A stretch of DNA of 64,000 bases. It comes from an uncultured Solirubrobacteraceae bacterium (GTDB lineage Bacteria > Actinomycetota > Thermoleophilia > Solirubrobacterales > Solirubrobacteraceae). Positions 17,397-53,970 of this stretch are shown here, in pieces. The DNA is taken from contig CAWCET010000006.1 of the NCBI GenBank assembly GCA_963794635.1, positions 392,469-456,468 of the forward strand, given 5' to 3'. Each line of letters opens with the position of its first letter. Positions within the stretch are counted from its first letter, which is position 1. Both the position numbers and the translations under genes were made by a program. The notes below the pieces were generated by a model. The model did no database searches, was not told the origin of the DNA, and worked only from the letters and a program-made list of their open reading frames with translations.

Positions 17397-17486
17397 GGGC
17401 GCCCACGCGACCCCCCCATCCCATAAAAAATCTCCCATTTTGCAAGCGCTCCGCGCGCTCACTCAGAACGCTAGAGTTGTAAGTCA

Positions 17487-20400: not shown

Positions 20401-21824
20401 AGCGCGTCGCGGAGATCTGGGGCGAACGGCTCGTGGCTGACGGCGTCGTCACCCAGGAGGAGGTCGAGAAGCAGGCCCAGGAGGTCTGGGACAACCTCAC
20501 GCTCCTGCACCAGCGGCTGAAGTCGAAGATCGCGGAGGTCGCCGAGCACGGTGGCGAGCACTCGACAGGCGAGTACCAGCTGGACCGCTCGCCGAGCCCC
20601 GACGTCGAGACCGCCGTTCCCGCCGCGCGGCTGCACGAGCTGGGCGAGCAGCTCCTGCGCGTTCCGGAGGGCTTCACCGTGCACCCGAAGCTCGTCAAAC
20701 AGCTCGACCGCCGCCGCGAGGCGCTCGCGGCGGGCGCCGGCGAGCACCAGATCGACTGGGCACACGCCGAGGCGCTCGCGTTCGCGTCGCTGCTCACCGA
20801 AGGGACGCCGCTGCGGCTCACCGGCCAGGACACCGAGCGCGGCACGTTCAGCCAGCGCCACATGGTCCTTCACGACGCCAAGACGGGCCAGACCGTCTGC
20901 CCGATCCAGAACCTGCCCGACGCGCTCGCGCCGCTGGAGCTCCACAACAGCCCCCTCTCCGAGCTCGCCTGCATGGGCTTCGAGTACGGCTACAGCCAGG
21001 AGGCACCGGAGACACTCGTGCTCTGGGAGGCCCAGTTCGGCGACTTCGTCAATGGCGCGCAGGTGATCGTCGACCAGTTCATCGTCTCCGGCCTGGCGAA
21101 GTGGGGGCAGACCTCACGGCTGACGCTGCTGCTGCCGCACGGCTACGAGGGCTCGGGCCCCGAGCACAGCTCGGCCCGCCTCGAGCGCTTCCTCGCGCTG
21201 GCCGCCGAGGGAAACATCCGCGTCGCGAGCCCGACGACGCCGGCCCAGTACTTCCACCTGCTCCGCCGCCAGGCCAAGATCGCCAAGCAGCGCCCGCTGA
21301 TCGTGATGACACCGAAGTCGCTGCTGCGCCTGCCGCAGGCGGCGAGCGCGATCACCGAGATGGCCGAGGGCACCCGCTTCGAACCGGTGCTCGCCGAGCC
21401 GGGCATCGACGACGCGCAGGTGACACGGCTCGTGCTCTGCACCGGCAAGATCTACTACGACCTGGTCGGCCACCCGGAGCGCGCGTCGCACACGAGCCTG
21501 GCGGTCGCACGGGTCGAGCTTCTCTACCCCTTCCCCGAAGGCCAGCTCCTGGCGCTGATGGCGCGCTACCCGAACCTCCGCGAGGTCCTCTGGGTCCAGG
21601 AGGAGCCCCGCAACATGGGCAGCCGCGCCTACATGTTCCCGAGGCTGATGCAGATCATGCCTCCGGAGATCCACTTCGGATACGTCGGACGGCCGGAGCG
21701 CGCGAGCCCGGGCGAGGGCTATCCCGCCGCCCACGCGGCCGAACAGAGCCGGATCGTCAGAACCGCCATCGACCTTCGCCAGCCGATCTCGCAGTACCCC
21801 CGCAAGACCCCGGGCGAGCGCTGA
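17487..21824 (+). CDS. kgd: multifunctional 2-oxoglutarate dehydrogenase: 2 lipoyl domains + E3-binding domain + E2o-like acyltransferase domain + E1o (Kgd/OdhA type)
   Basis: 1445 aa. Two ISTDKVD lipoyl-Lys motifs (K51, K174). PSBD-like VSPVAARAAAAEGVDLASVEGSGRGGRITKSDV. E2 catalytic DHRVIQGA at aa 498. E1o ThDP region HGDASFPGQGVV and a SucA-like C-terminus. Confidence 0.9.
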   Translation: MATDTTTQQIVDVVTPAAGESVTEGTILEWHAKVGEQIKVDDTIVEISTDKVDVELPAPASGTVTEILVAEGDTVTVGQVIARIAVGDGAAPAASAPEGNGNGSAQAATAPAGGNGSASAPPAGEAPAQGTGVVDVLTPAAGESVSEGTILEWHAKVGDEIRANDTIVEISTDKVDLELPSPATGTVSEILVAEGDTVTVGQVIARIALGAGAAPAASAPESANGADESAPATPAQAPEGTSVSPVAARAAAAEGVDLASVEGSGRGGRITKSDVLGAASGNGAATAEPSAGDSEAQPMRGGAAALARYMELSRSIPTATSFRTMTVTALDGRRQQLKAGPRKVSFTHLIAYAIARAAEQMQVMTNHFEEIDGKPNRIVDGRVNLGLAVDVEKKDGSRTLMVPVITDAGKLGFDAFLDAYDALVEKARTNTLTADDLVGANITLTNPGGIGTIASVPRLMTGAGTIVATGSIAYPPGLAGIGATIGAEKVMTMTSTYDHRVIQGAESGRFLALVEEHLQGEHGFYEGVFEDLGVQLGAAPAPPAPAAAAAAAAQSPAAAPGGEEMLQAVQAATTLVGRVRSHGHLAARLDPLGSEPEGEPGLDPEALGLTPELQARIPAHLFQMYVPGATLADALPHLRETYCGTIAYEIEHIASHRQRVWLREHIESGSFRHELTNDERRALLKRLVEVDALERFMHKAYLGQHQFSIEGLDMTVPMLDELIQLSAAHGGQEVVVGMAHRGRLNVLAHNLGRAYDTIFAEFEGASTLEVVTTIPQGGTGDVKYHHGTQGTYQLPDGDTIRVNLESNPSHLEFVSAVVEGATRAAQTSRRGPHAHQDTNSAVPIVIHGDASFPGQGVVPETLNLQALDGYKVGGTVHLIMNNQVGFTTDPDDARSTRWASDLAKGFDVPIIHVNADDVAACISAVRLAFAFRQEFGHDVLIDLIGYRRFGHNESDEPAYTQPEIYAKIKAQKRVAEIWGERLVADGVVTQEEVEKQAQEVWDNLTLLHQRLKSKIAEVAEHGGEHSTGEYQLDRSPSPDVETAVPAARLHELGEQLLRVPEGFTVHPKLVKQLDRRREALAAGAGEHQIDWAHAEALAFASLLTEGTPLRLTGQDTERGTFSQRHMVLHDAKTGQTVCPIQNLPDALAPLELHNSPLSELACMGFEYGYSQEAPETLVLWEAQFGDFVNGAQVIVDQFIVSGLAKWGQTSRLTLLLPHGYEGSGPEHSSARLERFLALAAEGNIRVASPTTPAQYFHLLRRQAKIAKQRPLIVMTPKSLLRLPQAASAITEMAEGTRFEPVLAEPGIDDAQVTRLVLCTGKIYYDLVGHPERASHTSLAVARVELLYPFPEGQLLALMARYPNLREVLWVQEEPRNMGSRAYMFPRLMQIMPPEIHFGYVGRPERASPGEGYPAAHAAEQSRIVRTAIDLRQPISQYPRKTPGER
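17514..18149 (+). repeat. tandem duplication (369-nt period) encoding two lipoyl domains plus an Ala/Pro linker
   Basis: aa 10-98 and aa 133-221 are near-identical (IVDVVTPAAGESVTEGTILEWHAKVG... vs VVDVLTPAAGESVSEGTILEWHAKVG...). DNA similarity is visible, e.g. cgagatctccaccgacaaggtcga in both copies. Confidence 0.85.

Positions 21825-29962: not shown

Positions 29963-29966
<4 letters not shown>
28845..29966 (-). CDS. M42-family metallopeptidase (glutamyl aminopeptidase/endoglucanase-like)
   Basis: [39 protein letters not shown]... Typical M42 order. The start overlaps the acnA stop (ATGA). Confidence 0.85.
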
Positions 29967-32815
<2,849 letters not shown>

Positions 32816-32945
32816 CTCGACTCCCGAAGCTCGCCGTTGACCCAAACGGCTCGCAGTCTCGCAGAGTCACGTCGAGAAGCCGGTGCCAGACGGCGCTCGC
32901 GGCGCCGGATCGCCTGCCCGGACGGGAGCGGACGCGGGTCGCGGC

Positions 32946-33980
32946 TCAGCTCGGCGCGCCGGCCGCGCGGGTGACGCGTCCCTTGCCCTGGCGCTTGGAG
33001 CGCAGGAGCGCCGCGTCGCAGGCGGCGAGGAGCTCGTCGGTGCTCATCGGCGGCTGCCATTGGGCCACGCCGATCGAAGCCGACACGCCTTCGCCGCCGG
33101 CATAAGACGGGAGCCCGCGCAGACTGTCGAGGGCCCTGTTGGCCGCGGCGGCGGCGCTCTCCAGGGCGGCGTTCGGCAGGATCACGACGAACTCGTCGCC
33201 GCCGTAACGCGCGACGCGGTCGAAGGCGCGGAACTCGCCCACCAGCGCGCGCACCACCTCGCGCAACATCGCGTCGCCGGCGGGGTGGCCGTGCCAGTCG
33301 TTGACGAGCTTGAAGTCATCGAGGTCGATCAACAGGCACGAGAGCGGGCCGCCGGTGCGCATCGCGCGGCCGATCTCCTCATCCAGGCGGCGGCGCATCG
33401 CGCGGTGGTTCATGCAGCCGGTGACGGCGTCCGTGCCGGCCTCCGAGCGCGCCCTCACGAGGGCGAGCGCCGTAGCGCCCTGCTCGACCAGCGTGCGGGC
33501 GAGGTCCACCGCACCGGGCTCGTAGATCGCCGCGACGCGGCGCACGAGGAGCACGACCGCGTCGACCTCGGCACGCTCGACGATCGGCAGCAGCAGCACG
33601 CAGCTCATCTCGCCGGTCGCGGTGAGCCGCGGGACGCTGGCGGCGAATTCCTCCGCGTCGGCGGCGAGGAAGCTCCGGCGCGTGCGGGCGACCCAGCTGA
33701 CGCCGGGAGGGCGCTCCGCGCGAGAAGCGAGGTAGCTGACCCGGCCCTCCGCCTCGAACAGGTAGACGTCCACGAGGTCGTCGCTCGCGCCGTTCCGGGC
33801 GAGGTGGTGGATGTGCACCTCCTCGGCGCCGGGCGTCTCCAGCAGCTCGCGGGCGAGCGCGCGGAAGATCGCGTCCGGGTCCGTGACGCCGTCGGCGAGC
33901 GCCGTCAGCCGCCGTATCCCCGCCAGGACCCGCTCCACACCCCCGGACGCCGAGGTATCCGTACCTGAAACGACATCCAT
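32946..33980 (-). CDS. GAF-domain diguanylate cyclase (GGDEF)
   Basis: N-terminal GAF-like region. LLIDLDDFKLVNDWHGHPAGDAML and RAFDRVARYGGDEF (RxxD I-site plus intact GGDEF). Confidence 0.85.
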   Translation of the reverse strand: MDVVSGTDTSASGGVERVLAGIRRLTALADGVTDPDAIFRALARELLETPGAEEVHIHHLARNGASDDLVDVYLFEAEGRVSYLASRAERPPGVSWVARTRRSFLAADAEEFAASVPRLTATGEMSCVLLLPIVERAEVDAVVLLVRRVAAIYEPGAVDLARTLVEQGATALALVRARSEAGTDAVTGCMNHRAMRRRLDEEIGRAMRTGGPLSCLLIDLDDFKLVNDWHGHPAGDAMLREVVRALVGEFRAFDRVARYGGDEFVVILPNAALESAAAAANRALDSLRGLPSYAGGEGVSASIGVAQWQPPMSTDELLAACDAALLRSKRQGKGRVTRAAGAPS

Positions 33981-34138
33981 ACCCCCAATTTACGCCATCG
34001 GCGGGCGGCTGTGACAAAGGCGTGCGCGGCCCGTCACATTCCTACTCGAATCTACGCAGGAGTCGCCAAAACGACGGGCGGACACCGACCGTGACCGGCT
34101 GGCCGCCCGGGCAGGTGCGGCGCAGAGGACGGGCGAAA

Positions 34139-34166
34139 GGGGGCGCGGGCTCCGGCCCGCGCCCCC
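34139..34166 (-). terminator. intrinsic terminator-like hairpin downstream of the large secreted-protein gene
   Basis: GGGGGCGCGGGC-TCCG-GCCCGCGCCCCC is a perfect 12-bp stem 6 nt after the stop. It is followed on the minus strand by TTTCGCC. Confidence 0.6.
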
Positions 34167-34172
34167 GCTCGC

Positions 34173-37100
34173 TCAGTGGAAGCTGACCTTGGTGGTCGCG
34201 ACGGAGTGCTTGCCCTTCTTGGGCACGAACCCGACGCGGACATGTACGGTCAGCGGCTTTTTGCCCTGACCCGAGCTGGTCAGCGGCACCTTCAGCGTGA
34301 CGTTCTGGAACGCCTTCTTGGCTTTCTTCGTCGTGGTGCGCAGGTAGATGCCGCTCACGCTGACGCGACCCGCCGCCGGCACCCGAGCCGTGATGTAGAC
34401 CAGGTTGCCCACCACCTTGCGGCCCACGATCTCAACAGGGCACCCGGCCACGTTGATGATCGTGTTCTGTTTGAACGTCTTGCCGTTCTGCGCGGTCATC
34501 GTGGTCGGCATGACCAGCGATTTGGCGCAGATGTTCCCGTAGGCCGCCAGCGCGCTGTGCGAGCCGATCGGCAGTTCGACGCGGACGCTCGATACCGGGA
34601 CATCCGGCGTCGAGGCGAACGTCGTGGTGGTGATGCTGTTTTTGATGTTGGTGTTGCCGACCAGGATCACCCTGAGGTGGTTCGGGTCTTCGACGACCAG
34701 ATCGAGGTCCGGGAACGCGGCGTTCGCGTGCGAGACCAGGATCGCCGGGCCGCGCAGCGGCTGGGGCAGCGTCGGGGTTTTCACCACGGCACCGCCGACG
34801 AACGAGCCGCTCGGGCAGCGCAGCGGGTTGACGTTGAACACCTGTTCGGTGCAGGCTTTCTGCAGCGTCGTCAGCCTCGAGGGCAGCGAGCGCGGCAGCT
34901 GGACCTTGACGGACTTGATGTTCGCCTGACCCGCGGCCTGCGTCACTTCGGTGACCAGCATCGCCCCGTTCGAGCGCGAGGTCCTCGCGTTCGAGTTCGC
35001 TTTGAACTTCGGCGCGAACTTCAGGGCGCTGCAGTTGGCCACCTGGAACGGCGATTCCGCGATGCTGCTGGCGGTCGCCCCGCCCGGTTCGAGCGTCGAG
35101 AACCCGCCGACCGTCGACACGGTTTTGAACGCGCCGCAGTTGGTCGGGTTGATCATGAACCCAGGCTTGTTGACCGCGATGCTGATGTTTTTGATGCGCA
35201 GCGGCACGCCGTCGCGGATCCTCGGCAGCGTGCTTTCCACGATCACCTGCGAGGTGTACGGGTCGACCGTGATCCCTGCGCGGGTCACGACCGTGCCGAA
35301 GTTGAAGGGCCCGGCGATCGCCGGAACCTTGATCGACAGGCCGTACGGCGAGCCGTTGTAGGGACCGGTCAGGTAGACCGGGCCGCTGAACGAGAACGGC
35401 TGGCTGCCGGAGCCCGCGAGCACCGTCGCCGTGCCGATCTGGCTCGTCGTCGGGCAGGCGGCCGATTCGCTCGACGCAGCCGGTTCCTGGCAGCGTTCGG
35501 CGAGCGAGATCTTGCCGACGAGACCCGGCGGCAGCTCTGTCTTGACCGAGCTGACGTACTGTTCGCCGTCGTTGCGGGCGAGGTTGAACGTGAAGTTCGT
35601 GCTCGCACCGCCGTTGCCGTTGCTGAGCTGCGTCGACTGGCCCGGTTTGAAGGGCGGGCCGGGGTTGCAGCCGGTGATCGGCTGGCCGAACGCGTCGGCT
35701 TTCAGCGTGCCCGGCGCCGCGGTCGATTCGAACACGGCCACGCCTTTCGCTTCACCGCAGATCAGCGGGTTGGCGATCGGCGCGAGGACGTTGCGGTTGA
35801 AGCTGATCGCGAGGTTCGTGAACGGCTGTTCGGGCGGGCTGCTGAACGTCGTCGTCACCTGCCCGGTCGCCAGGTCGGGGCTGACGTGCGCCACGAGGCG
35901 CACGGACACGCCGTACTTGGGCGAGTTCGCGACCACGTACATCGTGAACGGCGGGGCCGTGATGGGCCCGCCCTGGGGCTCACCCAGGTAGGCGGCTCCC
36001 GTCAGCGAGCCGTCCGGAAGCGTCGGGACGTTCAAAGTCACGGTGCCGATCTGCGACGCGGCCGGGCACCCGACACCGAACGCTTCGGTGAATTTTTCGG
36101 TGCCTTCGATTTCGTTCGCTTCGCTCGGTTTGCAGCCCGTGAGGCCGTTCGCGGCCGACGGGTTGAGCGTCATGCCGGCCGGCAACACGAATTTCGCCTG
36201 TTTGACCTGCGAGACGTCGTTCGCTTTCGGGTTGTGTTCGATCGAGGCTTCGGCCGTGAATTCGTTCGGCGAGTCCGTCGTCGTCGTCGACGGGTGGAAG
36301 CCGAAGTTGATCGGGAATTCGAGCAGGTTGCAGCCCGTCAGGCCGATCGGGGTCGTGAACGACGACCGGGTCGAGCCGACCGTGCCGGCTTCCGGACCCG
36401 CCAGGGCCGGGCCTTCGAGCGTCAGGTTCGTCGTGAGGTGACCCGGGCAGCTCGTGGCGTTCGTGATGAAGGCGCCGTTGCCGCTCTGGCCGTAGAACGT
36501 CAGTCGCGAGCGCAGCAGCGGCGGCGACGCGGCCGCTTCGATTTCGAAGTAGTCGTGGTAGTCGGCTTCGCCGGTGCCTTTGGCTTCTTTGCCCCATTCG
36601 ACGTTGCCTTTGATCAGCGTGTGCGAGTAGTACTGGCCTTCGATGAGCGCTTTTTCCGTCGCTTTTTTGGCGGCTTCTTTTTCCGGTTTGCCGCCGGGGA
36701 ACTCCGATTCCGGCAGCGGTTCGTTTTTGAAGTGTTCCGTCAGCTCCGCTTCGGTGAGGAATTTCGGGAGTTTGACGGCGACGCCGTACAGCGCGGCGAG
36801 GTGCGGGCCGCCGGGGCGCATGGTTTCGCTTTCGCTCGCTTCGAGGTCGTAGACGAGGCCTTCGACCGGAACATCACCGAAGCCTTCGGCTTTTTCGACG
36901 TTCCCGGTGTAGATGGTGGCCTGCTGAAGGCCGATTTCGCTTTCTTCGCATGCCGCGTCAGGAGCCGCATAGAGGCCGGCCGACGCCAGCGGCGATGCTC
37001 CCGCCCCGCCTTCGTAGTCCGTCATCGAGCAGCGTTCGACCGCGAAGGGGTTGGTCGCGAGCCCCGGCGCGACATCCGTGCGGATGTGCGTCGTCGCCGC

Positions 37101-37421
37101 AGCCGGGATCTTGTCGGGGTAGTTGGTGCCGGGGATGCTCGCGACCAAGAAGTCGGTCACGCCGTAGGGCACGCGCCCGCCGGCCTGGGTGAAGCCTTCT
37201 TCTTCGGCTTCTTTGACCGTGATTTTCGCCTTCGGCTCTTCGAAGTCGAAGTGGAACGGCCCGGAGTTCGTCGCGACCGTTTCCTCGCCACATTCTTCTT
37301 CTGTGCAGTTCGTGGCGACGAACTTTTCGATCCCGATCGCCTGCGCTGCGCTTGGCAGCAGAACGGCGAGCGCGAGCCCGCAGACAAGCATCAACAACCA
37401 CACCCGTGCACGCGACCTCAT
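34173..37421 (-). CDS. 1082-aa secreted protein of repeated Cys-framed modules, unknown family
   Basis: ATG 37421 is preceded by GAGGAGGAGG. Signal peptide is MRSRARVWLLMLVCGLALAVLLPSAAQA. The internal repeated motif CP(A/T)xSQIGT occurs twice and NPxxC(G) recurs. The ORF-track start at 37604 is a 5' extension. Confidence 0.85.
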   Translation of the reverse strand: MRSRARVWLLMLVCGLALAVLLPSAAQAIGIEKFVATNCTEEECGEETVATNSGPFHFDFEEPKAKITVKEAEEEGFTQAGGRVPYGVTDFLVASIPGTNYPDKIPAAATTHIRTDVAPGLATNPFAVERCSMTDYEGGAGASPLASAGLYAAPDAACEESEIGLQQATIYTGNVEKAEGFGDVPVEGLVYDLEASESETMRPGGPHLAALYGVAVKLPKFLTEAELTEHFKNEPLPESEFPGGKPEKEAAKKATEKALIEGQYYSHTLIKGNVEWGKEAKGTGEADYHDYFEIEAAASPPLLRSRLTFYGQSGNGAFITNATSCPGHLTTNLTLEGPALAGPEAGTVGSTRSSFTTPIGLTGCNLLEFPINFGFHPSTTTTDSPNEFTAEASIEHNPKANDVSQVKQAKFVLPAGMTLNPSAANGLTGCKPSEANEIEGTEKFTEAFGVGCPAASQIGTVTLNVPTLPDGSLTGAAYLGEPQGGPITAPPFTMYVVANSPKYGVSVRLVAHVSPDLATGQVTTTFSSPPEQPFTNLAISFNRNVLAPIANPLICGEAKGVAVFESTAAPGTLKADAFGQPITGCNPGPPFKPGQSTQLSNGNGGASTNFTFNLARNDGEQYVSSVKTELPPGLVGKISLAERCQEPAASSESAACPTTSQIGTATVLAGSGSQPFSFSGPVYLTGPYNGSPYGLSIKVPAIAGPFNFGTVVTRAGITVDPYTSQVIVESTLPRIRDGVPLRIKNISIAVNKPGFMINPTNCGAFKTVSTVGGFSTLEPGGATASSIAESPFQVANCSALKFAPKFKANSNARTSRSNGAMLVTEVTQAAGQANIKSVKVQLPRSLPSRLTTLQKACTEQVFNVNPLRCPSGSFVGGAVVKTPTLPQPLRGPAILVSHANAAFPDLDLVVEDPNHLRVILVGNTNIKNSITTTTFASTPDVPVSSVRVELPIGSHSALAAYGNICAKSLVMPTTMTAQNGKTFKQNTIINVAGCPVEIVGRKVVGNLVYITARVPAAGRVSVSGIYLRTTTKKAKKAFQNVTLKVPLTSSGQGKKPLTVHVRVGFVPKKGKHSVATTKVSFH

Positions 37422-37469
37422 GCCAACCTCCTCCTCAAACGGACAGACATCCTCTACCCCTATGGAATC

Positions 37470-37493
37470 CCAAAATCCCGCAAAAGTTGCGGG
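37470..37493 (-). terminator. terminator-like hairpin between the GT39 gene and the large secreted-protein gene
   Basis: Minus strand reads CCCGCA-ACTTT-TGCGGG followed by ATTTTGGGATT. The stem is short (6 bp), so this is tentative. It could also be a leader structure. Confidence 0.35.
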
Positions 37494-37647
37494 CCTAGAC
37501 GGCCGTATTAGACGAACGCCGGGATTGTCCTTCCGTGGGCCCGGCGCCCCTCGGCGCATCCAGGCTTCTTTGAGGACGCTATTCGGATCCTCGGACACCA
37601 CCATACATGCCGGGCGGTCCGGAAACGCCGGGTTACGCGAATGTCGG

Positions 37648-39861
37648 TTAGGAGGTTGCGGCTTCGATCGCCGCGGCCTGGCCCTGGCAGTCGTAGAGCG
37701 TGCCCGCGGAGGAGCTCGAGGAGGAGGATTCCGACCCGCCGACGGTGACGCGCGTGCACGCTTTCGCGACCGCCGCGAAGGCCTTGCGAGAGCCTTCGCG
37801 CCCGTCGCCGGCGCGCCCGCCGGGGCCGCGCGCCGAGCCGGTGGAGCCCGAGCCGAACAGCGTCTGTCCGGTCCCGCCGGTGCCCGAGGAGCCCGTCGTG
37901 CCTGAGGAGCCAGAGCCGAACAGAGCCTGCCCGCCGGTGCTCGCTCCCGAGGATTCTTCGTCGAGCACCCAGCGGATCTTGCCGTCGCGGACCTCCTGGG
38001 CCAGCCAGCTCACCGAGACGCTGCTCTCGCGTCCGGAGAACCCGCCGATCCCGGCCACGTCGGCGGCGTCGGAGATGATCGAGCCGGCGGCGCTCGACTG
38101 GCTGGAGACGGCGATCGTGCCGCCCCCGTGGGCCTTGACGTAGGCGAGGACCTCGGAGCTGATCGAGTTCCCGAACGCCCCGCCGCCCGGCGCTCCGCCG
38201 CTGCGCGCGGTCCCCGACCGGGAACCGGAGCCCGCACCTCCGGGTGCGAAGCCGCCCGCGCCGGAGAACCCGCCGGGAGGGCCGAAGCCCGCGCCGGCCG
38301 TGCCTCCCGGGGGAGCGAAGGAGCCCGACCCGGCGCCGCCGCCCGGCCCGCCGCCCGCGCCGGGGCGCGCAGCGCCGCCGGGGCCGCCGAAGCCCGAGGT
38401 CGCGACGATCGAGGGGCCGCCTTCGGGGAAGCTCCCTGTCTCCGAGCGCCCGAGCGTCTGAACGGACCAGATCGCGGGGGCGACCATCAGCACGGCGCCT
38501 GCGAGCACCGCCGCGGCCAGGCGCCACGAGCGGCGCCCGGCGAACGCGAGCACGGCGGCGGCGAGGAGGGCGAGGGCGATCAGCACGGGCACGAGCCAGC
38601 GCAGCTGACCCGGGTAGTCGCCGAGCACCGCGAGCTCGGTGGCGACACCGGCCGCGATCGCGAGCGGAGCGAGGATGCGCCCGTGCTCGCGCCCGGAGGC
38701 GAAGTGCGCGACCCCGGCCCCCACCAGCGCGGCGGCGAACGGGGCGAGCAGGGAGACGTAGTAGGGGTGGAAGATGCCGCTCGCGAAGCTGAACAGCACG
38801 GCGGTGGTGACGAAGGCGCCCCCGACCGCGAGCAGCCAGCCGGTGCGCGCGTCGGTGCGGCGCAGGCGGCTCGCGAGGAGCAGGGCCAGCGCGCTGAGCG
38901 CCGCGAAGCCGAGCAGCCAGCCCCCCTGGCCTCCGAGCGCGGAGTTCAAGAGGCGCAGCGGCCCGGTCGTACCGCCGAACTGGGTGCCGCCCCCGAGGCC
39001 GCCCGGCCCACCGGCCTGGCCGTCGACCCGCCCGACGCCGTTGTATTCGAAGATCAGCGAGAGCACACGGTTGTCGCTCGTGCCGGAGATCCAGGGCCGC
39101 TGCGAGGCGGGGGTGAGTTCGACCAGCAGCGGCCACGCGCCGCCGACGATCGTCATCGCGGCGCCGCCGGCGAGCAGCTGTCCCATCGCGCGCAGCCGCG
39201 AGCGCCCGCCCGGCGCGCACCACAGCCATGCGAGCGCGATCCCGGGCACCACGACGAGGGCGACGAGCATCTTGGTCTCGAAGCCGAGGCCGACGCAGAT
39301 GCCGGCGAGGACGAGCCATCGCGTGCGGCCGTCCTCGAGCCCGCGGACGGTGAACCAGAGCGCCGCGACCGAGCAGAGCACGAGCAGCGCGTCGGGGTTG
39401 TTGTAACGGAAGATCGCGACCGTGATCGGGGTCAGCGCCAGGGCGAGGCCGGCGACCGCGCCGCCCAGGCGCCCGAAGCGGCGCCGGACGAGGTCGTAGG
39501 TGAGCCCGACCGCGGCGACGCCCATCAGCGCCTGCGGCACGAGCATCGCCAGCGGGTGGTAGCCGAAGACGCGCACCGAGAGCGCCTGCACCCACAGGGA
39601 CAGCGGCGGCTTGTCGACGGTCATGACGCCGCTCGGGTCCAGCGAGGCGAACAGGAAGTTGTGCCAGCTCGTGCTCATCGAGCGCACGGCGGCGCTGTAG
39701 TAGTCGTTCGCCCACCCGTTGCGGCTGAGCGCCCAGAGGTTCAGGACGGCGGCGAGCGCGAGCAGGCCGAGCAGCTCGGGGCGGGGGGCGCGCAGGGCGA
39801 TGCGGCGCGTGCGCTCGGAGGGCAGGCCGGTGAGGGGTGCGGTGGCGGAGGGAGAGCTCAT
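37648..39861 (-). CDS. GT39-family (ArnT/PMT_2-like) membrane glycosyltransferase with a Gly/Ser-rich C-terminal extracytoplasmic region
   Basis: 737 aa, multi-TM N-terminal half with the motif VMTVDKPPLSLWVQAL. The C-terminal ~250 aa are Gly/Ser-rich with a folded segment (VLAYVKAHGGGTIAVSSQSSAAG...IRWVL). Confidence 0.85.
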   Translation of the reverse strand: MSSPSATAPLTGLPSERTRRIALRAPRPELLGLLALAAVLNLWALSRNGWANDYYSAAVRSMSTSWHNFLFASLDPSGVMTVDKPPLSLWVQALSVRVFGYHPLAMLVPQALMGVAAVGLTYDLVRRRFGRLGGAVAGLALALTPITVAIFRYNNPDALLVLCSVAALWFTVRGLEDGRTRWLVLAGICVGLGFETKMLVALVVVPGIALAWLWCAPGGRSRLRAMGQLLAGGAAMTIVGGAWPLLVELTPASQRPWISGTSDNRVLSLIFEYNGVGRVDGQAGGPGGLGGGTQFGGTTGPLRLLNSALGGQGGWLLGFAALSALALLLASRLRRTDARTGWLLAVGGAFVTTAVLFSFASGIFHPYYVSLLAPFAAALVGAGVAHFASGREHGRILAPLAIAAGVATELAVLGDYPGQLRWLVPVLIALALLAAAVLAFAGRRSWRLAAAVLAGAVLMVAPAIWSVQTLGRSETGSFPEGGPSIVATSGFGGPGGAARPGAGGGPGGGAGSGSFAPPGGTAGAGFGPPGGFSGAGGFAPGGAGSGSRSGTARSGGAPGGGAFGNSISSEVLAYVKAHGGGTIAVSSQSSAAGSIISDAADVAGIGGFSGRESSVSVSWLAQEVRDGKIRWVLDEESSGASTGGQALFGSGSSGTTGSSGTGGTGQTLFGSGSTGSARGPGGRAGDGREGSRKAFAAVAKACTRVTVGGSESSSSSSSAGTLYDCQGQAAAIEAATS

Positions 39862-39992: not shown

Positions 39993-40727
39993 TCAGTCGA
40001 TCAGGCGCCGCCCGAGCTGAGAGATGGCAAGGCGCCACATCAGCAAGGCAAAGCCGATCAGCACCGCGGCGTGGCCGAGGTCGGCCGGGCCGAGTTCCCC
40101 GAAGCAGGCGTTGCGTATCAATTGCACGCAGTGGTAGAGCGGGTTGATGTAGGCGACCTGACGGACGCCCTCCGGCAGCTTTTCGACCGGGAAGAAGGTG
40201 CCGGCGACGAGGAACATCGGCGTGAGCACGGCGCTGGTGACGTAGTTGAAGTTGTCGATCGTCTTCGCGACCGCGGCGATCGCGACGCCGAACGAGCAGA
40301 AGCCGAAGCCGGTCACGAAGCCGATCAGCGGTACGAGCAGCATCCCCCACGCGGGTTCCAACCCGAAGAAGAAGCCGACGATCAGCGGCGCGACGCCGTA
40401 GACGCCGGCCCGGATCGAGACCCACAGCACCTCGGCGGTGATCAGCTCTTCGACGTCGACCGGGGCCGCCAGCATCGCGTCGTATGTGCGCTGGAACTGC
40501 CAGCGCACGAACGTGTTGAACATGCCCGGGAACGCAGAGGAGAACAGCACCGCAGTCGCGACGACACCGGTCGACACGTAAGCCACGTAGCTGACGCCCG
40601 CGATCTGCGGAATGAAGGCGCGGATGCCCAGCCCGAACGCGAGCAGGTAGATCGTCGGCTGCACGATCGAGGAGAAGGTCGTCGCCTTCCAGTAGCGGCC
40701 GAAGATCGAGATGTCGCGGCTCATCAC
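39993..40727 (-). CDS. ABC-2-type transporter permease (NodJ/DrrB-like)
   Basis: 244 aa with 6 TM segments. N-terminal FGRYWKATTFSSIVQPTIYLLAFGLG is typical of ABC-2 permeases. The start is uncertain (see findings). Confidence 0.8.
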   Translation of the reverse strand: MMSRDISIFGRYWKATTFSSIVQPTIYLLAFGLGIRAFIPQIAGVSYVAYVSTGVVATAVLFSSAFPGMFNTFVRWQFQRTYDAMLAAPVDVEELITAEVLWVSIRAGVYGVAPLIVGFFFGLEPAWGMLLVPLIGFVTGFGFCSFGVAIAAVAKTIDNFNYVTSAVLTPMFLVAGTFFPVEKLPEGVRQVAYINPLYHCVQLIRNACFGELGPADLGHAAVLIGFALLMWRLAISQLGRRLID

Positions 40728-40808: not shown

Positions 40809-41726
40809 TCATTCGATCTCCTCTCCGGTCAGCGCGACGAAGGCGTCTTCGAGGTTCGCGGGGCGCAGCACGCCCTCGGGCGCGTCGCCGTCGAGCGTCT
40901 CGGCGCGCAGGATCGCGACCGCCGGGCCGCTGCGACGGCTCTCCCAGCCGCGCTCGGAGGCGAGCGAGCTGACCTCGGCCAGGCGCGCGGGCGGACCATA
41001 GACTTCCAGGACGCGCTCGCCCGCGTGCCCGGCCACGAGCTCGGCGGGCGTCCCTTCGGCGATCACCTTCCCCGCCGACATCACGGCCACCGTGTCCGCG
41101 AGGCGCTCGGCCTCCTCGATGTAGTGGGTGCTCATCAGCACGGTCACGCCCTCCGCGCGCAGGCCGTCGATCAGCGACCACAGCTCCTGGCGGATCTGCG
41201 GGTCAAGCCCGACGGTCGGCTCGTCGAGCAGGACCAGGCGCGGGCGGTGGATCAGCCCGCGGGCGACGAGCAGGCGCCGGCGCATCCCGCCCGAGAGCTC
41301 GCGCACGATCGTGTCGGCGCGGGGGCGCAGGTTGGCGATGTGCAGGGCGCGTTCGACCGCGTCCTCGCGTTCGGCGCGCGGCACTCGATAGAGGCGGGCG
41401 AAGACGAGGAGGATCTGCCGGCAGGTGAGCTCGACGTCGAGGTTGTCGAGCTGCGGCACGACACCCATCTCCAGGCGCGCCTGCTTGGACTGACGCGGCA
41501 GCGTGTAGCCGAGCACCTCGATCGTGCCCTCGTCGGCCAGCGCCTGCGCGGTCAGCATCCGCATCGTGGTCGACTTCCCGGCGCCGTTCGGGCCCAGGAG
41601 CCCGAAGCAGACACCCGTCGGCACCTCGAGCTCGAGGCCGTCCACCGCGGCTATCTCGCCGAAGCGCTTGTGGACGCCGCGCAGCGAGATCGCGCTCTGC
41701 CGATGCTCTTGCACCCCGTCGGTCAC
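40809..41726 (-). CDS. ABC transporter ATP-binding protein (DrrA/NodI-like)
   Basis: Walker A GPNGAGKST, signature LSGGMRRRL, Walker B LVLLDEPT. GTG 41726 chosen (VTDGVQEH...ISLRGVHKRFG). Confidence 0.85.
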   Translation of the reverse strand: MTDGVQEHRQSAISLRGVHKRFGEIAAVDGLELEVPTGVCFGLLGPNGAGKSTTMRMLTAQALADEGTIEVLGYTLPRQSKQARLEMGVVPQLDNLDVELTCRQILLVFARLYRVPRAEREDAVERALHIANLRPRADTIVRELSGGMRRRLLVARGLIHRPRLVLLDEPTVGLDPQIRQELWSLIDGLRAEGVTVLMSTHYIEEAERLADTVAVMSAGKVIAEGTPAELVAGHAGERVLEVYGPPARLAEVSSLASERGWESRRSGPAVAILRAETLDGDAPEGVLRPANLEDAFVALTGEEIE

Positions 41727-41880
41727 GACGGAGACTCTAGGCGCCCGCCGCGGCGCTCCCGAGCCGGGCTGGTGCTTCTGTCCGAGCGCGCCTGCGAAAT
41801 CTCCGACGGCGGTCCATGTCTCGATCGGCCCCGCGCGGGCAGGCTTCGGATCCGTCCCGAGCAACGAACGGAGCGAAGCG

Positions 41881-48922: not shown

Positions 48923-49420
48923 TCAGCCCGAGCTTTCGAACGAGGTCCCGGAGCCCGAACCAGAGCCGCCGGAGGAATGGGGAGCCGGGGACGGGCTGGG
49001 CGCAGGAGCCGTCGGTTTGCTGACTTCCGGCGCAGGCGTGACCGGGGTCACCGTCGGGGTGGGCGCGGGCGTCGAGACGGCCGGCGTCGTCGGCGTGACC
49101 GTCGGCGTGACCGTCGGGGTCACCGCCGGCTGGGAGCTCTTGGCGGGCACGCTCGGTTTGGGCGCCGGCGGCGCCGGGCGCACGACGGCGAGCTTGATCG
49201 CGGGTGCCGCGACAAGCGCTGCCGGAACCGGGGTGGAAACGGCGGGCAGGCGCGGCGGGGTGCGTTCCACCACCGCTTCGCCCGAGCGGCGGATGTGGCC
49301 GACGCCGAACGCGGCGGCGAAGACGGCGGCGATCGCGGCGCACCAGATCGCGACCCGCCGCGGCTCGAATCGGCGTCCGACGGGGCGGGTCCTGCGTCGC
49401 TCGAGGGGGTGCGTGCTCAT
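48923..49420 (-). CDS. membrane-anchored Pro/Thr-rich protein (165 aa)
   Basis: The ATG at 49420 overlaps the upstream stop (ATGA). TM is VAIWCAAIAAVFAAAFGVG, followed by TPTVTPTVTPTTPAVSTPAPTPTVTPVTP. Confidence 0.6.
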   Translation of the reverse strand: MSTHPLERRRTRPVGRRFEPRRVAIWCAAIAAVFAAAFGVGHIRRSGEAVVERTPPRLPAVSTPVPAALVAAPAIKLAVVRPAPPAPKPSVPAKSSQPAVTPTVTPTVTPTTPAVSTPAPTPTVTPVTPAPEVSKPTAPAPSPSPAPHSSGGSGSGSGTSFESSG

Positions 49421-50790
49421 GAGGAGGGGCAGACGATCGGGGCTTCTCCCGTGCTCAGGCAGTTGTCGGTCCTTCTGGGGAGCTTGCCACGCCGCGGCAC
49501 GAAGCGCGTCAACTTGCCGATCTGGCCCGCTTTGGTGACGCGGATTTCCAGCACGGCCCCCGCCGCGAGCGAGTGCGCGAAGCGCGGGAACGAGAGCAGC
49601 GCGGTGCCGGGAGTGTCCGACTGCTTGGTGGCCGTGGCGACGCGGCTCTGCGAGGTCGTGCGCACGCCCGTGCCGCGGATCCGCACGGTCACCCGCGCCG
49701 AGATCGGAGCGGAGACCGTCACGAGCGTGAGCTTGACGCCGCCGGGGGTCTCCCGCCCGGCGATTCTGACGATCGGGAACGGTTCCATCAGCGTCGCAGC
49801 CTGATGGTGGACCACGATCGTCTGCGTGGAGGTCGCCGAGCGGCCGGCCGCGTCGGTGACCTGGAGCCGGACGACGTGGGCGCCCGGCGTCGAGAAGGTC
49901 GTCGTCGTCGTCGCGTGGCCGGTGTGGAACGGTTCGGTCGCGGTCAGCCCCCAGGCAAAGGTCGTGATCGGCGAGTTCGCGTCGGTGGCGCTCGAGACGA
50001 GCGTGACGGTTTCGCCGACGCGGGGCTGTTCGGGGAACCACGTGAAGGAGGCCGACGGCGGTGGCGGCGGCGGCTGGGCCAGCACCGTGATCGCGACCGG
50101 GCCGCTGGTGCCGACGTTGCCGGCCGCGTCGCTCTGCTGGGCCTGAAGGGTGTAGCTGCCGGGCGCGAGCCCGGCGAGCGCGCCGGACCAGGAGCCTCCG
50201 GCGGCGGCCATTTCGACGGACTCGATCGGTGCGGCTGCGAGCTCGGCGCCCGCGAAGACGTCGACGAGGACGCTTTCACGGTCGCCCGGCGCCGTGCCCG
50301 CGGCGCCGCTGACGGGAATCGCGCCCGTGTAGTACCTCGCGCCGGGGGAGGGGGAGGAGATGGAGGGGGACGGAGCCGTGGTGTCGACCGTGAACGTGAC
50401 GGGCGAGCTCTTGCTCGCTTCCTGTTCTTCGACGTTCTCTTCCGCGACGATCGTGTAGACGCCGGCCGTGAGCGGCTTTTCGAGCGCCGCGTCCCAGTCG
50501 GTGCAGGTTTCCGAGCCGAGGGCCGCTCGGTCGACGACAGGACCTTCAGCTGCGGTCCCTTCGTAGACCCTCACCGTCACTTCGCACCACCCGCTGGCGT
50601 CTGGTTCGAGCGCACCGACGATCGCCGGGTCCGTTTCATGGACGTATGAGCCCGTGGTCGGGCTCACGATCCGCAGGGTCGGCGCGGCTGCCGAGGCGCT
50701 TCCCGCGCTCAGAGCCAGCATGCAGCTCGCCGCGGCGGCGATCCCTGCCAGCCGTCCGAGCACGGGCGCTGTCGATCTGATCAGGCGCAC
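49417..50790 (-). CDS. secreted protein: 2 Ig-like repeats + PKD domain + unassigned C-terminal module
   Basis: The GTG start overlaps the upstream stop by 10 nt. Signal peptide ends ...LSAGSASAAAP. PKD-like segment is FTWFPEQPRVGETVTLVSSATD...VRLQVTDAAGRS. The C-terminal 120 aa are shared with the upstream gene. Confidence 0.8.
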   Translation of the reverse strand: MRLIRSTAPVLGRLAGIAAAASCMLALSAGSASAAAPTLRIVSPTTGSYVHETDPAIVGALEPDASGWCEVTVRVYEGTAAEGPVVDRAALGSETCTDWDAALEKPLTAGVYTIVAEENVEEQEASKSSPVTFTVDTTAPSPSISSPSPGARYYTGAIPVSGAAGTAPGDRESVLVDVFAGAELAAAPIESVEMAAAGGSWSGALAGLAPGSYTLQAQQSDAAGNVGTSGPVAITVLAQPPPPPPSASFTWFPEQPRVGETVTLVSSATDANSPITTFAWGLTATEPFHTGHATTTTTFSTPGAHVVRLQVTDAAGRSATSTQTIVVHHQAATLMEPFPIVRIAGRETPGGVKLTLVTVSAPISARVTVRIRGTGVRTTSQSRVATATKQSDTPGTALLSFPRFAHSLAAGAVLEIRVTKAGQIGKLTRFVPRRGKLPRRTDNCLSTGEAPIVCPSS

Positions 50791-53700
50791 GGGATCGGTT
50801 TCGGTTCGGTCGAGCTGACGCAGGCATCCGAGCGGAGCGGGAGCCTGCCCTTGCGAACTGCAAAGCGCGTGTACTTGCCGATCCTCCCCGCCTCGGTGAT
50901 CCTGATTTCAAGCGCCACCCCCGCCGGCAGAGCGCGCTGGAGTCTCGGGAACGTGAGCACGGGCAGGCCCGTGGACTTGCCCTTCGGCCGGACGACGGCA
51001 CGCGAGAGGGTGCGTACCGGGCAGCCCGTGCCCTTGCAGACGACCGTGACGTTCGCCCCGGCGGGCGCTTCGACGCTCAGCACCTTCAGATGCAGGCGAC
51101 CACCCGAGCGCGTCGTGAGGATGCGCACCGTGGGGAAGGGATGCATCAACGGGAAGCTGACCGGGATCTGCTGCAGGGAGACGCCCGAACGGCCCGTCCC
51201 GTCGGTGACTCGCAGCTGAACCGGGTGGTTTCCGGGAGTGGTGAAGGTGATCGTGCGACGCTGGGCACCGGGCGTGAAGCCCGTGCCCATGAGGTTCCAC
51301 GCGTAGCTGGCGATCGGGCTCGTCGCGTCGCTCGAAGTGGAGACCAGCGTTACGAGTTCACCGGTGCGAGGGTGTGACGGGAACCAGCTGAAGCCGACGG
51401 TCGGCCCTCCCGCGGGCGAGGAATCCGTCACGTCGGTGAAGGAGTGCGCGCTCGTGCCCACGTTGCCGGCTTCATCGCTCTGGGAGACGAGCACCGTGTA
51501 CTGGCCGGGCACGAGCCCGCCGAGGGTGGCCGACCACTCGCCGCCGGCGGCGAGGACGGTGACCGTCTGCGCGGCAGTGCCTGCAGCGGATCCGCCCGCG
51601 AACAGCTGCACCGTCACGGCGTTCAGATCGTGGGCGGCCGTTCCCGAGGTCCCGTGGAAGGAGACCGTTGAGCCGCTGACGGTCGCGCCCTGGGCGGGCG
51701 CCTGAACGGACACGATCGGCGCCACGGTGTCGATGGTGAAGTCCTGCGGGGCCGTTGCGCCCGTCGAGCCGCCCAGGGTCTTCTGCCAAGCGACGGCCTC
51801 GTATTCGCCGTCGGCCAACGGCTGCGTGAGCGTGGCCGACCAATCGCCCCCTGCCGCGGACACGGCTTCAGGTTCTCTGGGTTCGGCCTTGCATTCGGCC
51901 GTCGGGAGCTTGCAGATGGCCACGTGAACCGGCGTCGTTTCGCTCGCGGTCCCGGTGAAGGTCGGCGTCGAGGTGTCCAGCTGTGCTTTGACCAGGGCCA
52001 GCGTGACGCTCGGCGCCAGCGGATCGACGATGAATTCGAACTTCGCGACACCTGCTTCATTGCCGAGCGAGCTCGCCTGGGTGGCCGTCGCCGTATAGCT
52101 CGCTTTGGTCGACGGAAGCGTCAGCTTCCCGGCGGGGATGGACCACGCGCCGCCGCTCACCGGAACTGTTTCTTTGAAGACTTCTTTCCCTCCGGGCAGC
52201 TTCACGACGAACGTCACCGGCCCGGTGTCGCTCGCTGTGCCGCTGAAGGACGGTTTCGTTTCTTTGGAAGGCGTCGCGATCGGCGTGATCGTCACCGTCG
52301 GCGGCAGCGTGTCGAGGACGTAGGGCGATTCCGCCCGGCCTTCCGGGTTGCCGGGGATGCTGCTCTGCTCGGTCGCGAGGATGGTGTAGGTGTGTTCTCC
52401 GGCCGGGAGCTCGGGCGAGACGGAGCCCGTTTCCCATTTCGTGCCGCTGGGGGTCGCTTCGGCCACCGCGACCTGGTGGCCTCCTTCGAGCACCTGCACG
52501 ACGACCCGCTTCGTGTCGCTCGTCGTCCCCGAGAACCTGGGCGAGCGTTCGTTCGAGGGCGACCTGAACGGTTTGAGCGTGAGCGCGGGCGCCGCCGTGT
52601 CCACGACGAAGTGGACTTCTCCGCTGCGACCCGTGCCGTTGCCGAACCCGCCCGTCTGTTCGGCGACCGCCGTGTAGCTGCCGTCGCCGAGCGCCGGGCT
52701 CGTCGCACCGGAGCTCCACGACGCCCCGGTACCGCTCGCGTGAGCTTCGGCCACCAGCGCCCCCGCGGCGTTGCCGCCCGCGTAAACGTGCACCGTGACC
52801 GGCGTGCTTTCGCTCGCGAACCCGCTGAAGGACGGGGCGGCGTCGTTGCTCGGGGTCGCGATCGCCGCCATCGAGACGCTCGGCGGGGACGTTTCGACCG
52901 TGAAGTGGATCGCGCCGCTGACGCCCGGCCCGTTCCCGAAGCCGCTTTCCTGTTCGGCCACCGCCGTGTAGCTGCCGTTCGCCAGCGCGGGCGAAGCGGG
53001 TCCGGAATTCCACGACCCCCCCGTACCGGATGCCTGCGCTTCCGCCACTGGGCTTCCGCCCGCAGAGCCGCCGTCGTAGATGCGGACCACCACCGTCGAG
53101 CCTTCGCTCGCGCTGCCGCTGAACGACGGCGTGCGGTCGTCGGTCGGGGAGGAGATGCCGTTGAGCGAGACGCTCGGCTTGGACGCGTGCACCTCGAAGG
53201 TCGTCGGCTCGCTGAAGCCCGCTTCGTTGCCGATCGAGCTCCTCTGTTCGGCGATCGCCGTGTAGGTCCCGTCGCCCAGCGGCCCCACCGAGGACGAGGA
53301 CCACGCGCCGCCGCTCGGGTTCGCCGAGACCTCCGCCGCGAGCGAACCTCCCGGCGAGGACCCTCTGAACACGTAGACGGTCACAGGTTCGCTCGGGTCG
53401 CTCGCGGTCCCGCTGAAGGACGGCGTCGAGTCGTTCGTCGGCGACGGGATCCCGTTCAGGCTCACTTCCGGGCTGCGCGTCTCGACCGTGAAGCCGACCG
53501 GTCCCGCATGCGCGGTTTCGCCGGTGAGCGTTTCGGTCTGTTCGGCTTCGACGCTGTAGCTCGCTTCCCCGAGCTCGGAGGGCAGCTGCAGCGACCAGCC
53601 GCCACCGCCGTTGGGTGTCGTCTGCGCGCTTTCGTAGAAGGAGCCGTTCCTGAAGACCGTGACGGTCACGGCGTCTTCGGTGTCGCTGGAGAAGCCCGAG

Positions 53701-53843
53701 AAGACCGGGTGCGTGTCGCCGGTCACTTCGCCGGAGCTCGGCGATTCGATCGAGACGAACGGCGCCGCCAGGGCAGGAGCAACCGACGTGGCAAATGCCA
53801 CGGCCGTCAGAAGCAGCCCCGCAAGCAGGGCGCGTTCGATCAT
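50781..53843 (-). CDS. secreted protein: 8 tandem Ig-like repeats + PKD domain + unassigned C-terminal module (1020 aa)
   Basis: ATG 53843 is preceded by AGGAGA. Signal peptide is MIERALLAGLLLTAVAFATSVAPALAAP. Repeats carry the motif P.FSG.ASD...V.V......G..WS.......L.DG.Y...A.Q....GN. Confidence 0.85.
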   Translation of the reverse strand: MIERALLAGLLLTAVAFATSVAPALAAPFVSIESPSSGEVTGDTHPVFSGFSSDTEDAVTVTVFRNGSFYESAQTTPNGGGGWSLQLPSELGEASYSVEAEQTETLTGETAHAGPVGFTVETRSPEVSLNGIPSPTNDSTPSFSGTASDPSEPVTVYVFRGSSPGGSLAAEVSANPSGGAWSSSSVGPLGDGTYTAIAEQRSSIGNEAGFSEPTTFEVHASKPSVSLNGISSPTDDRTPSFSGSASEGSTVVVRIYDGGSAGGSPVAEAQASGTGGSWNSGPASPALANGSYTAVAEQESGFGNGPGVSGAIHFTVETSPPSVSMAAIATPSNDAAPSFSGFASESTPVTVHVYAGGNAAGALVAEAHASGTGASWSSGATSPALGDGSYTAVAEQTGGFGNGTGRSGEVHFVVDTAAPALTLKPFRSPSNERSPRFSGTTSDTKRVVVQVLEGGHQVAVAEATPSGTKWETGSVSPELPAGEHTYTILATEQSSIPGNPEGRAESPYVLDTLPPTVTITPIATPSKETKPSFSGTASDTGPVTFVVKLPGGKEVFKETVPVSGGAWSIPAGKLTLPSTKASYTATATQASSLGNEAGVAKFEFIVDPLAPSVTLALVKAQLDTSTPTFTGTASETTPVHVAICKLPTAECKAEPREPEAVSAAGGDWSATLTQPLADGEYEAVAWQKTLGGSTGATAPQDFTIDTVAPIVSVQAPAQGATVSGSTVSFHGTSGTAAHDLNAVTVQLFAGGSAAGTAAQTVTVLAAGGEWSATLGGLVPGQYTVLVSQSDEAGNVGTSAHSFTDVTDSSPAGGPTVGFSWFPSHPRTGELVTLVSTSSDATSPIASYAWNLMGTGFTPGAQRRTITFTTPGNHPVQLRVTDGTGRSGVSLQQIPVSFPLMHPFPTVRILTTRSGGRLHLKVLSVEAPAGANVTVVCKGTGCPVRTLSRAVVRPKGKSTGLPVLTFPRLQRALPAGVALEIRITEAGRIGKYTRFAVRKGRLPLRSDACVSSTEPKPIPCA
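51426..53762 (-). repeat. eight tandem ~95-100-aa Ig-like coding repeats
   Basis: Repeat boundaries, read from the translation in ORF numbering, are about aa 62, 156, 255, 353, 451, 547, 642 and 741-840. Copies 2-4 are the most similar to each other. Confidence 0.8.
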
Positions 53844-53970
53844 TCTCCTAGGCCTCAAGGGAGACCCGCCATTGTTTGATCTGTCTCCAAGCCGGGTCCC
53901 CCGGCTGGCTCCGACACCCCTCCAGGTGCCCCTTGGAGCCTCCATTGCGGAATCTGTTCCGCTGGGTCAA

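Follow-up and report, generated by a model that had tools for sequence, protein, structure and literature searches.

A cysteine-framed, four-unit exported protein family of Solirubrobacterales as a candidate wall-held surface stalk

MSCRAMM-type adhesins such as Cna of Staphylococcus aureus and Cnm of Streptococcus mutans (DEv-IgG N2) carry a signal peptide and use tandem elongated beta sandwiches to hold a distal region away from the wall. Surface proteins with Big, PKD or TIG repeats are likewise exported chains of several beta sandwiches. The surface-layer (S-layer) proteins of Lactobacillus, which we take to be the comparable case of a basic wall-binding region, there binding teichoic acids, combine an acidic or neutral body with a strongly basic terminus and no covalent anchor signal. 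BslA of Bacillus subtilis is a biofilm surface protein with an Ig-like sandwich, and the MG-domain chains of alpha-2-macroglobulin and complement C3-C5 are long beta-sandwich strings. The protein described here resembles each of these systems in part. It comprises 1082 amino acids (aa) and is encoded at 34173-37421 on the minus strand of a window of 64,000 nucleotides (nt), with a G+C content of ~72%, from contig CAWCET010000006.1 of an uncultured Solirubrobacteraceae bacterium; the window is the whole stretch of DNA that was analysed, and all coordinates refer to it. Four homologous cysteine-framed units lie between an export signal and a polycationic C-terminal domain, and we lean, with some reserve, toward reading the protein as a stalk on the cell surface, or a scaffold for adhesion, that is bound to the wall by no covalent link. 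Modular surface proteins made of beta sandwiches are familiar molecules; what is new here is a large, lineage-restricted family and not a new principle.

Comparison of the protein with itself by BLASTP returned no internal repeat. Profile-profile comparison did reveal repeats: slices of an alignment of 50 homologues (A1) were compared pairwise by hhalign, and residues 395-560 matched 825-970 with an E value of 3.2e-11 and 612-770 with 6.6e-10. Residues 612-770 in turn matched 825-970 (E 1.6e-6) and 100-230 (E 2.4e-6), and the linker 346-382 matched the linker 779-815 (E 3.7e-6), while non-overlapping control slices gave E values >1e-3. With E values from 3.2e-11 to 3.7e-6, these comparisons support the internal duplication proposed in the initial annotation, which had been drawn from the DNA letters alone. 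The layout proposed there, three copies and a weaker fourth, needs revision. When units from 14 diverse homologues are aligned with MAFFT, four full units, U1 included, fall into register with four cysteines each, and their extents of ~200-300 aa exceed those first given, which were too short. Identity between the four units within the protein is 14-24%.

Each unit displays the same order of landmarks. The first half opens with (F/L)xxP, followed by a strand that has LPxG(L/M) at its end, a first cysteine (Cys-a) and a second (Cys-b) within CPxxSx(I/V)G; the second half continues with GxxYL, NPxxCys-c, a hairpin of ~30-40 residues and G-Cys-d. U1 covers residues 60-364 (36330..37244, minus strand, as are all features of the gene), with cysteines 131, 158, 325 and 364, the family motif TQAGG(H/R)P and, at 220-262, an additional helical insert of low conservation. 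U2, residues 365-585 (35667..36329; cysteines 430, 452, 555 and 585), carries FVLPAGMTLNP, CPAASQIGTVTL and NPLICG, and U3, residues 586-797 (35031..35666; cysteines 644, 656, 762 and 797), carries ELPPGLVG, CPTTSQIGTATV and NPTNCG. The central motifs sit where they had been placed before, CPAASQIGTVTL at residues 452-463 (nt 36033-36068) and CPTTSQIGTATV at residues 656-667 (nt 35421-35456). U4, residues 798-994 (34440..35030; cysteines 857, 869, 965 and 994), contains QLPRSLPSRLTTLQKAC and CPSGSFVGGAVV. All four assignments come from hhalign together with the in-register alignment. In front of U1, an N-terminal cap (residues 29-59, 37245..37337) with Cys39 and Cys44 forms a beta hairpin in the AlphaFold model, and the chain starts with a Sec-type signal peptide, residues 1-28 (MRSRARVWLLMLVCGLALAVLLPSAAQA; 37338..37421), read from the translation with a putative cleavage site. 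This already annotated signal is the sole hydrophobic segment of the protein, and AlphaFold renders it as a low-confidence helix at residues 3-20.

The cysteine framework is conserved well beyond the target sequence. In an alignment of 25 sequences with a mean column identity of 34%, 15 of the 16 unit cysteines are invariant or nearly so; in place of the remaining one, C158, a near-invariant cysteine stands two columns off, at C156. The initial annotation had noted cysteines at fixed places, and four of them indeed recur in register in every unit; the target has 18 conserved cysteines in its mature part. Among 200 homologues of ~1000 aa, the cysteines that we propose as partners are present or absent together, C39 and C44 being retained or lost jointly in 197/200. 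The mature-cysteine count is even in 185/199 homologues, and the few seeming single losses are alignment shifts of one or two columns. Because of this spacing and co-occurrence we propose a-b disulfides at 131-158, 430-452, 644-656 and 857-869, c-d disulfides at 325-364, 555-585, 762-797 and 965-994, and a cap pair 39-44. Two disulfides would then probably staple each unit, one of them short-range at the CPxxSxIG loop and the other closing the inter-unit hairpin.

A second trait of the chain is its charge polarity. From the N- to the C-terminus, the isoelectric points (pI) of successive segments are 4.4, 4.65, 5.0, 8.7, 9.6 and 11.3. The last 100 aa of 249 homologues have a median pI of 11.9, with 98% of them >9, against a median of 5.2 for the remainder of the chain. 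The Lys-rich tail had been recognized from the outset, whereas this family-wide polarity of acidic body and basic tail had been missed. In some members, a pure Lys/Arg run directly after Cys-d of U4 is all that forms the C-terminus. In the target, residues 995-1082 (34176..34439, pI 11.3) make up a basic C-terminal beta domain and tail, with seven strands in the full-length AlphaFold model, which we propose as a putative wall-binding anchor on the basis of its charge. No LPXTG motif occurs in the target tail, and a regular-expression search over the last 60 residues of 269 family proteins gave one chance match; the hydrophobicity profile of the target is free of a C-terminal transmembrane (TM) segment. 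Sequence, hydrophobicity and pI thus bear out the earlier description of a basic tail lacking both LPXTG and a C-terminal TM segment.

The family is large and centered on one order. A word-indexed search returned >1084 homologues, all "hypothetical" and none with a precomputed Pfam domain; those with names all come from metagenome-assembled genomes of Solirubrobacterales or Solirubrobacteraceae. An exhaustive profile search, run over 1.84 billion cluster representatives, gave 7136 matches at E<=1e-3 and 2743 at E<=1e-30. Scanning of GTDB species genomes yielded at least 592 loci. The best 80 of these are all from metagenome-assembled genomes of Solirubrobacterales type; 79 bear Solirubrobacterales or Solirubrobacteraceae in their titles, and the remaining one reads "Actinobacteria bacterium". 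As the scan was seeded with A1 and not with the more divergent alignment A2, this taxonomic picture is tilted toward close relatives. Among the loci listed, the closest (L075) is 87% identical. Several assemblies carry two family loci. Two or more family open reading frames (ORFs) were called at each of 11 loci: 7/11 have a second full-length copy directly downstream, and the other 4/11 appear as one gene split by ORF calling.

Longer members are particularly informative about the architecture. Relatives of 1300-1700 aa retain the cassette from U1 through U4 to the tail and place N-terminal add-ons in front of it, namely five TIG domains, Ig/DUF11, an NHL/SGL beta-propeller or fn3-like domains. 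In giants of 3420, 6729 and 7161 aa, the U2+U3 pair (profile positions ~330-755) is repeated 7-15 times, and the array is followed by a single U4 and the basic tail. In the diverse alignment, identity to the target rises from tip to base, being 0.19-0.25 in U1, 0.32 in U2, 0.43 in U3 and 0.50 in U4. As judged from these alignments, U4 with the tail is the constant base of the wider family, U2+U3 its repeatable extender and the tip its variable end. Such a combination of variable tips, a repeatable extender and a constant base is what would be expected of a length-adjustable stalk or adhesin scaffold, and the variable tip is presumably the ligand-facing end. A search seeded with the repeat of one divergent giant gave 13 matches only, one of them with a Solirubrobacteraceae name, and the genome contexts of two of the 13 were mobile-element-rich or unannotated. 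At locus L084 (ERZ25039478:contig_5518), a gene at 8001-10352 that encodes a divergent 783-aa member is surrounded by genes for integrase, transposase and Fic proteins, so that mobile elements may carry part of the family.

Sequence searches did not connect the module to a known family. For the target protein, Pfam gave no family at E<=10, NCBIfam a single noise match and PHROGs only noise. Searches of PDB sequences with the target protein, the U3 profile and a whole-family profile gave nothing better than E 0.6. Pfam scans of 25 diverse members revealed no recurrent family (He_PIG in 2/25 at E 0.005), and the units had no significant match to the known bacterial Ig-like repeat families (Big_1-13, PKD, TIG, fn3, DUF11, He_PIG). 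A divergent DUF11, considered in view of the LPxGL landmark, was rejected, as hhalign of the U3 profile against the DUF11 segment of a relative gave a probability of 1%. The failure to assign the module to a family, reported in the initial annotation, is thereby confirmed across Pfam, NCBIfam, PHROGs and PDB sequences.

Structural models allow for a closer comparison. The full-length AlphaFold2 model, computed on A1, is nearly all beta, with a predicted local distance difference test (pLDDT) score of 81.8 and a predicted template modeling (pTM) score of 0.67; the model of residues 583-800, which represents U3, is all-beta with 12 strands (pLDDT 81.6, pTM 0.77). Foldseek searches with the latter against the PDB and BFVD, a viral structure library, returned 0 matches at E<=1e-3, in line with the initial view that the module has no confident counterpart. 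Its neighbors are all sandwiches, with probabilities up to 1.0. They include the N2 collagen-binding domains of Cnm (7lgr; E 2.8e-3, probability 0.99, template modeling (TM) scores 0.32/0.42) and Cna (1amx; probability 0.95), as well as BslA (4bhu; probability 1.0, E >1e-2, TMt 0.58-0.62, TMq 0.35-0.38). Weaker neighbors are fimbrial adhesins, the SpaD pilin, AspA, Sgo0707, cohesins and p53-type sandwiches. These results favor describing the unit as a new sequence family, whose modeled structure appears to have an elongated Ig-like, adhesin-type sandwich architecture, and not as a demonstrably new fold. Of the "uncharacterised fold family" named in the initial annotation, the family part stands, as nothing matched it; the fold part was overstated, given weak neighbors (Foldseek probability 0.9-1.0, TM scores 0.3-0.6) such as the Cna and Cnm N2 domains, BslA, fimbrial adhesins and pilins. 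The broader description as a multi-domain exported protein of an unnamed family survives the repeat, hidden Markov model and structure tests.

We hypothesize that Sec would export the protein from a Gram-positive Solirubrobacterales cell and that oxidative folding outside the membrane would produce a row of four homologous beta-sandwich units, a disulfide-stapled rod. In Actinobacteria, MdbA-type thiol-disulfide oxidoreductases are present outside the cytoplasm. Through its polycationic C-terminal domain, the protein would attach electrostatically to anionic wall polymers, with no covalent link, and the acidic rod would point outward with U1 as its exposed tip, where an adhesive or display function, including the binding of a ligand, may reside. 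The Gram-positive adhesin and pilin sandwiches among the nearest structural neighbors of the module speak in favor of such a stalk. Several observations weigh against it. No known wall-binding module (SLH, LysM, GW, LPXTG) occurs in the target, so that charge alone argues for wall anchoring, and the structural matches of the module are weak (E >1e-3, TM scores 0.3-0.6). A literature search on S-layer or surface proteins in Solirubrobacterales found nothing relevant. The syntenic core status of the gene, documented below, would suit a structural envelope protein more than a typical accessory adhesin.

The gene itself bears its own signals for expression. Translation of 34173-37421 reproduces the 1082-aa ORF annotated at first, and the strong Shine-Dalgarno (SD) sequence reported with it, GAGGAGGAGG, lies at 37436-37427, 5 nt 5' of ATG 37421. 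A longer ORF starting at ATG 37604 is present in the same frame. We favor the start at 37421 because homologues begin, like the target, with MRxxARVW and because the SD and ATG are kept in 10 orthologous upstream regions; the GGAGG core of the SD shows no variation among orthologues, and DNA farther 5' diverges with indels. The non-coding DNA 5' of the gene measures 226 nt. Aligned over the same 10 regions, it reveals four motifs at 37451..37534 that may belong to a promoter or a 5' untranslated region, namely GGAAGGAC (37534-37527), CGTCTAATAC (37514-37505), CCGCAACTTT (37492-37483) and GGGGTAGAGG (37460-37451). Their columns are invariant or near-invariant, and the remaining columns diverge. 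A GGGTA in the upstream region resembles, we assume, the -10 element of SigB/SigF-type promoters; a sigma-70 consensus scan of this region gave no promoter match, and an Rfam scan of the 5' region, including riboswitches (e.g. for cyclic di-GMP, given the GGDEF neighbor), gave none either. On the 3' side of the stop, sequence and folding reveal the hairpin terminator that had been proposed (34133..34172), with a 12-bp perfect GC stem at 34166-34139 within an extended stem, followed by UUU (-39.8 kcal/mol, z = -2.1); the terminator scan run along with the sigma-70 scan gave a score no higher than shuffled controls. The gene is monocistronic in appearance.

Its surroundings are conserved. Directly upstream lies a PMT_2/YkcB_C glycosyltransferase of the GT-C type (37648-39861, minus strand), preceded by an ABC2_membrane gene (39993-40727, minus) and an ABC_tran gene (40809-41864, minus); downstream are a GAF-GGDEF gene (32946-33980) and an aconitase gene (29963-32845). 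Related contigs have the same gene order, at times with a two-component system inserted before the family gene. At the 69 loci where a family member was called, GGDEF genes recur in 55/69, aconitase in 51/69 and PMT-like genes in 41/69, indicating that the window copy is a vertically inherited core gene. Clustering of neighbors across 83 loci gave housekeeping genes, to which the orthologous locus adds the PMT-like glycosyltransferase, the ABC-2 exporter and the two-component system; no sortase, chaperone(-usher) or dedicated secretion gene was among them. Paralogues occupy contexts that are conserved but of a housekeeping kind, with genes for acyl-CoA dehydrogenase, MlaD/Mce, AIR-synthase-like proteins and oxidoreductases, and one such context adjoins a sigma factor, an anti-sigma kinase and a SpoIIE phosphatase. 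As a matter of speculation, the upstream exporter and glycosyltransferase could serve to glycosylate the protein; alternatively, they could export a polymer of the wall to which its basic tail binds. Elsewhere in the window, 17475-21824 (plus strand) encodes a 1449-aa fusion of lipoyl, E3-binding, E2 acyltransferase and E1 2-oxoglutarate dehydrogenase domains, which we take to resemble the actinobacterial OdhA/KGD-type fusion.

An S-layer or other lattice- or sheath-forming envelope protein, with a basic C-terminus binding the wall and with the GT-C and ABC-2 neighbors glycosylating it, would account for much of this genomic evidence. It would agree with a core syntenic orthologue across the order, with the strong conserved SD, the gene's own terminator and the conserved upstream region, with a mass of ~110 kDa distributed over an acidic body and a basic end, and with the PMT_2/YkcB_C and ABC_tran/ABC2_membrane genes directly upstream, the PMT-like cluster being present in 41/69 loci. 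The protein itself fits less well. It has 18 conserved mature cysteines, whereas bacterial S-layer proteins, to our knowledge, usually have few or none, and the variable tips and length-variable stalks of its relatives suit fibrils over lattices. No SLH or other S-layer domain of Pfam was found in the target at E<=10, and the literature search gave no S-layer report for Solirubrobacterales. Moreover, the synteny may only mirror the common ancestry of close genomes; paralogues lie in unrelated housekeeping contexts. We regard a lattice-forming protein, the main rival reading, as unlikely.

We judge it improbable that the protein is secreted in soluble form as a binding protein or an enzyme, for instance as an alpha-2-macroglobulin-like protease trap or a hydrolase with its active site in U1. 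Whole-chain Foldseek searches against the PDB do place alpha-2-macroglobulin and complement chains on top (E ~2e-7), along with transglutaminase, integrins and adhesins, but with TM scores of ~0.1 and a root mean square deviation (rmsd) of 17-67 Å. The matches to alpha-2-macroglobulin, complement and transglutaminase were set aside as generic strings of beta sandwiches, the rmsd being >40 Å for the macroglobulin and complement chains. No conserved thioester motif accompanies them: the target reads CGEAK at 555-559, and the family consensus is NPLxCGTPxG, that is CGTPxG and not CxEQ. The cluster H267/E275/W276/D287/H289/D290 of U1, which could be taken for an active site, is invariant among orthologues only and is not conserved in the wider family, and neither the target nor 25 diverse members have a catalytic Pfam domain. 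A soluble protein would also leave the universal polycationic tail without a role. A covalently polymerized fiber subunit, either of a sortase-type pilus or of a fiber joined by intermolecular disulfides, is highly improbable despite the weak fold likeness to the SpaD pilin and Cna-type domains, since there is no LPXTG or C-terminal hydrophobic segment, no invariant Lys within the units (25-sequence alignment) and no sortase gene among the conserved neighbors, and the cysteines are even in number and probably pair within units.

A side observation concerns the codon usage of the gene. GAA accounts for 59/66 Glu codons and AAA for 32/55 Lys codons, while all other synonymous families are genome-typical. 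Cytoplasmic genes of the window display a strikingly different usage, with GAA in 4/78 Glu codons of aconitase and 11/112 of the 2-oxoglutarate dehydrogenase fusion. Over the 69 loci, the GAA share of Glu codons is 87% in family members and 15% in their neighbors, the ratio being more than two-fold in 68/69. Intermediate to high shares are found in other genes of the window: 46/57 and 19/23 in two Big_13/PKD proteins (50781-53945 and 49417-50790, both minus strand), 16/33 in a subtilase (56318-58162, plus strand) and 9/19 in the PMT-like glycosyltransferase at 37648-39861. For 521 non-family ORFs from related loci, the pooled GAA fraction is 0.10 in ORFs with no hydrophobic segment, 0.27 with one and 0.34 with at least four, and MlaD/Mce proteins are among those with the highest fractions. 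Genes for secreted and membrane proteins thus favor GAA and partly AAA, in contrast to cytoplasmic genes, which favor GAG and AAG. ORFs with more hydrophobic segments have higher GAA fractions, so that the bias tracks extracytoplasmic location and not a general AT shift. No relevant report turned up in a literature search for a GAA bias of secreted proteins.

The two Big_13/PKD proteins are also of interest for their own C-termini. These adjacent, exported multi-Ig proteins of 457 aa (49417-50790) and 1054 aa (50781-53945) both end in a similar basic two-Cys motif, ...GRIGKYTRFAVRKGRLPLRSDACVSSTEPKPIPCA and ...GQIGKLTRFVPRRGKLPRRTDNCLSTGEAPIVCPSS. From its sequence, this motif may represent a C-terminal signal of a second type, for anchoring or for sorting.

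Taken further, these observations could be combined into a picture in which the syntenic copy is the principal coat protein of Solirubrobacterales, as a fibrillar layer or S-layer, built from an undescribed four-Cys beta-sandwich unit with a new, purely polycationic anchor, and in which the extreme GAA/AAA preference, common to this and other envelope proteins, marks a secretome-specific translational program in high-GC bacteria. We consider this quite doubtful. Defining the family would point to a possible main surface structure for an order of abundant soil Actinomycetota that is mostly known from metagenome-assembled genomes and whose cell surface is essentially undescribed. It would also put a name to a large set of "hypothetical proteins": the cluster representatives number in the thousands, each genome has one core copy, with paralogues in addition, and members reach 7161 aa. 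The target would be a compact case of a length-adjustable stalk, with disulfides and a charge-based anchor in place of sortase and isopeptide chemistry.

The comparison with the described systems brings out what sets this protein apart. The N2 domains of MSCRAMM-type adhesins are among the best Foldseek neighbors of the module (7lgr, 1amx), at E values >=3e-3 and TM scores of only 0.3-0.4. Unlike MSCRAMMs, the target has no LPXTG/sortase anchoring and no Collagen_bind, Cna_B, SpaA or SdrG-type match in Pfam or NCBIfam; it is probably stabilized by disulfides and not by isopeptide bonds, given the lack of an invariant Lys, and its unit is larger, with ~200 aa and 12 strands. The likeness to Big, PKD and TIG repeat proteins extends to relatives in which TIG, Ig or fn3 domains are fused to the same scaffold, and to the GAA codon signature shared with the Big_13/PKD pair of the window (49417-53945); the target units differ in matching none of these families at E<=10 and in their fixed four-Cys framework. 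With Lactobacillus S-layer proteins there is no sequence relation, and in contrast to them the target is Cys-rich and modular, its binding to wall polymers being putative. BslA gives the module its highest Foldseek probability and target-normalized TM score, but is a single small domain (~130 aa) and matches the unit over part of its length only, at 6-9% identity. Alpha-2-macroglobulin and complement C3-C5 differ from the target, which has no thioester domain, CxEQ motif or Pfam A2M match and shares with them the long string of beta sandwiches.

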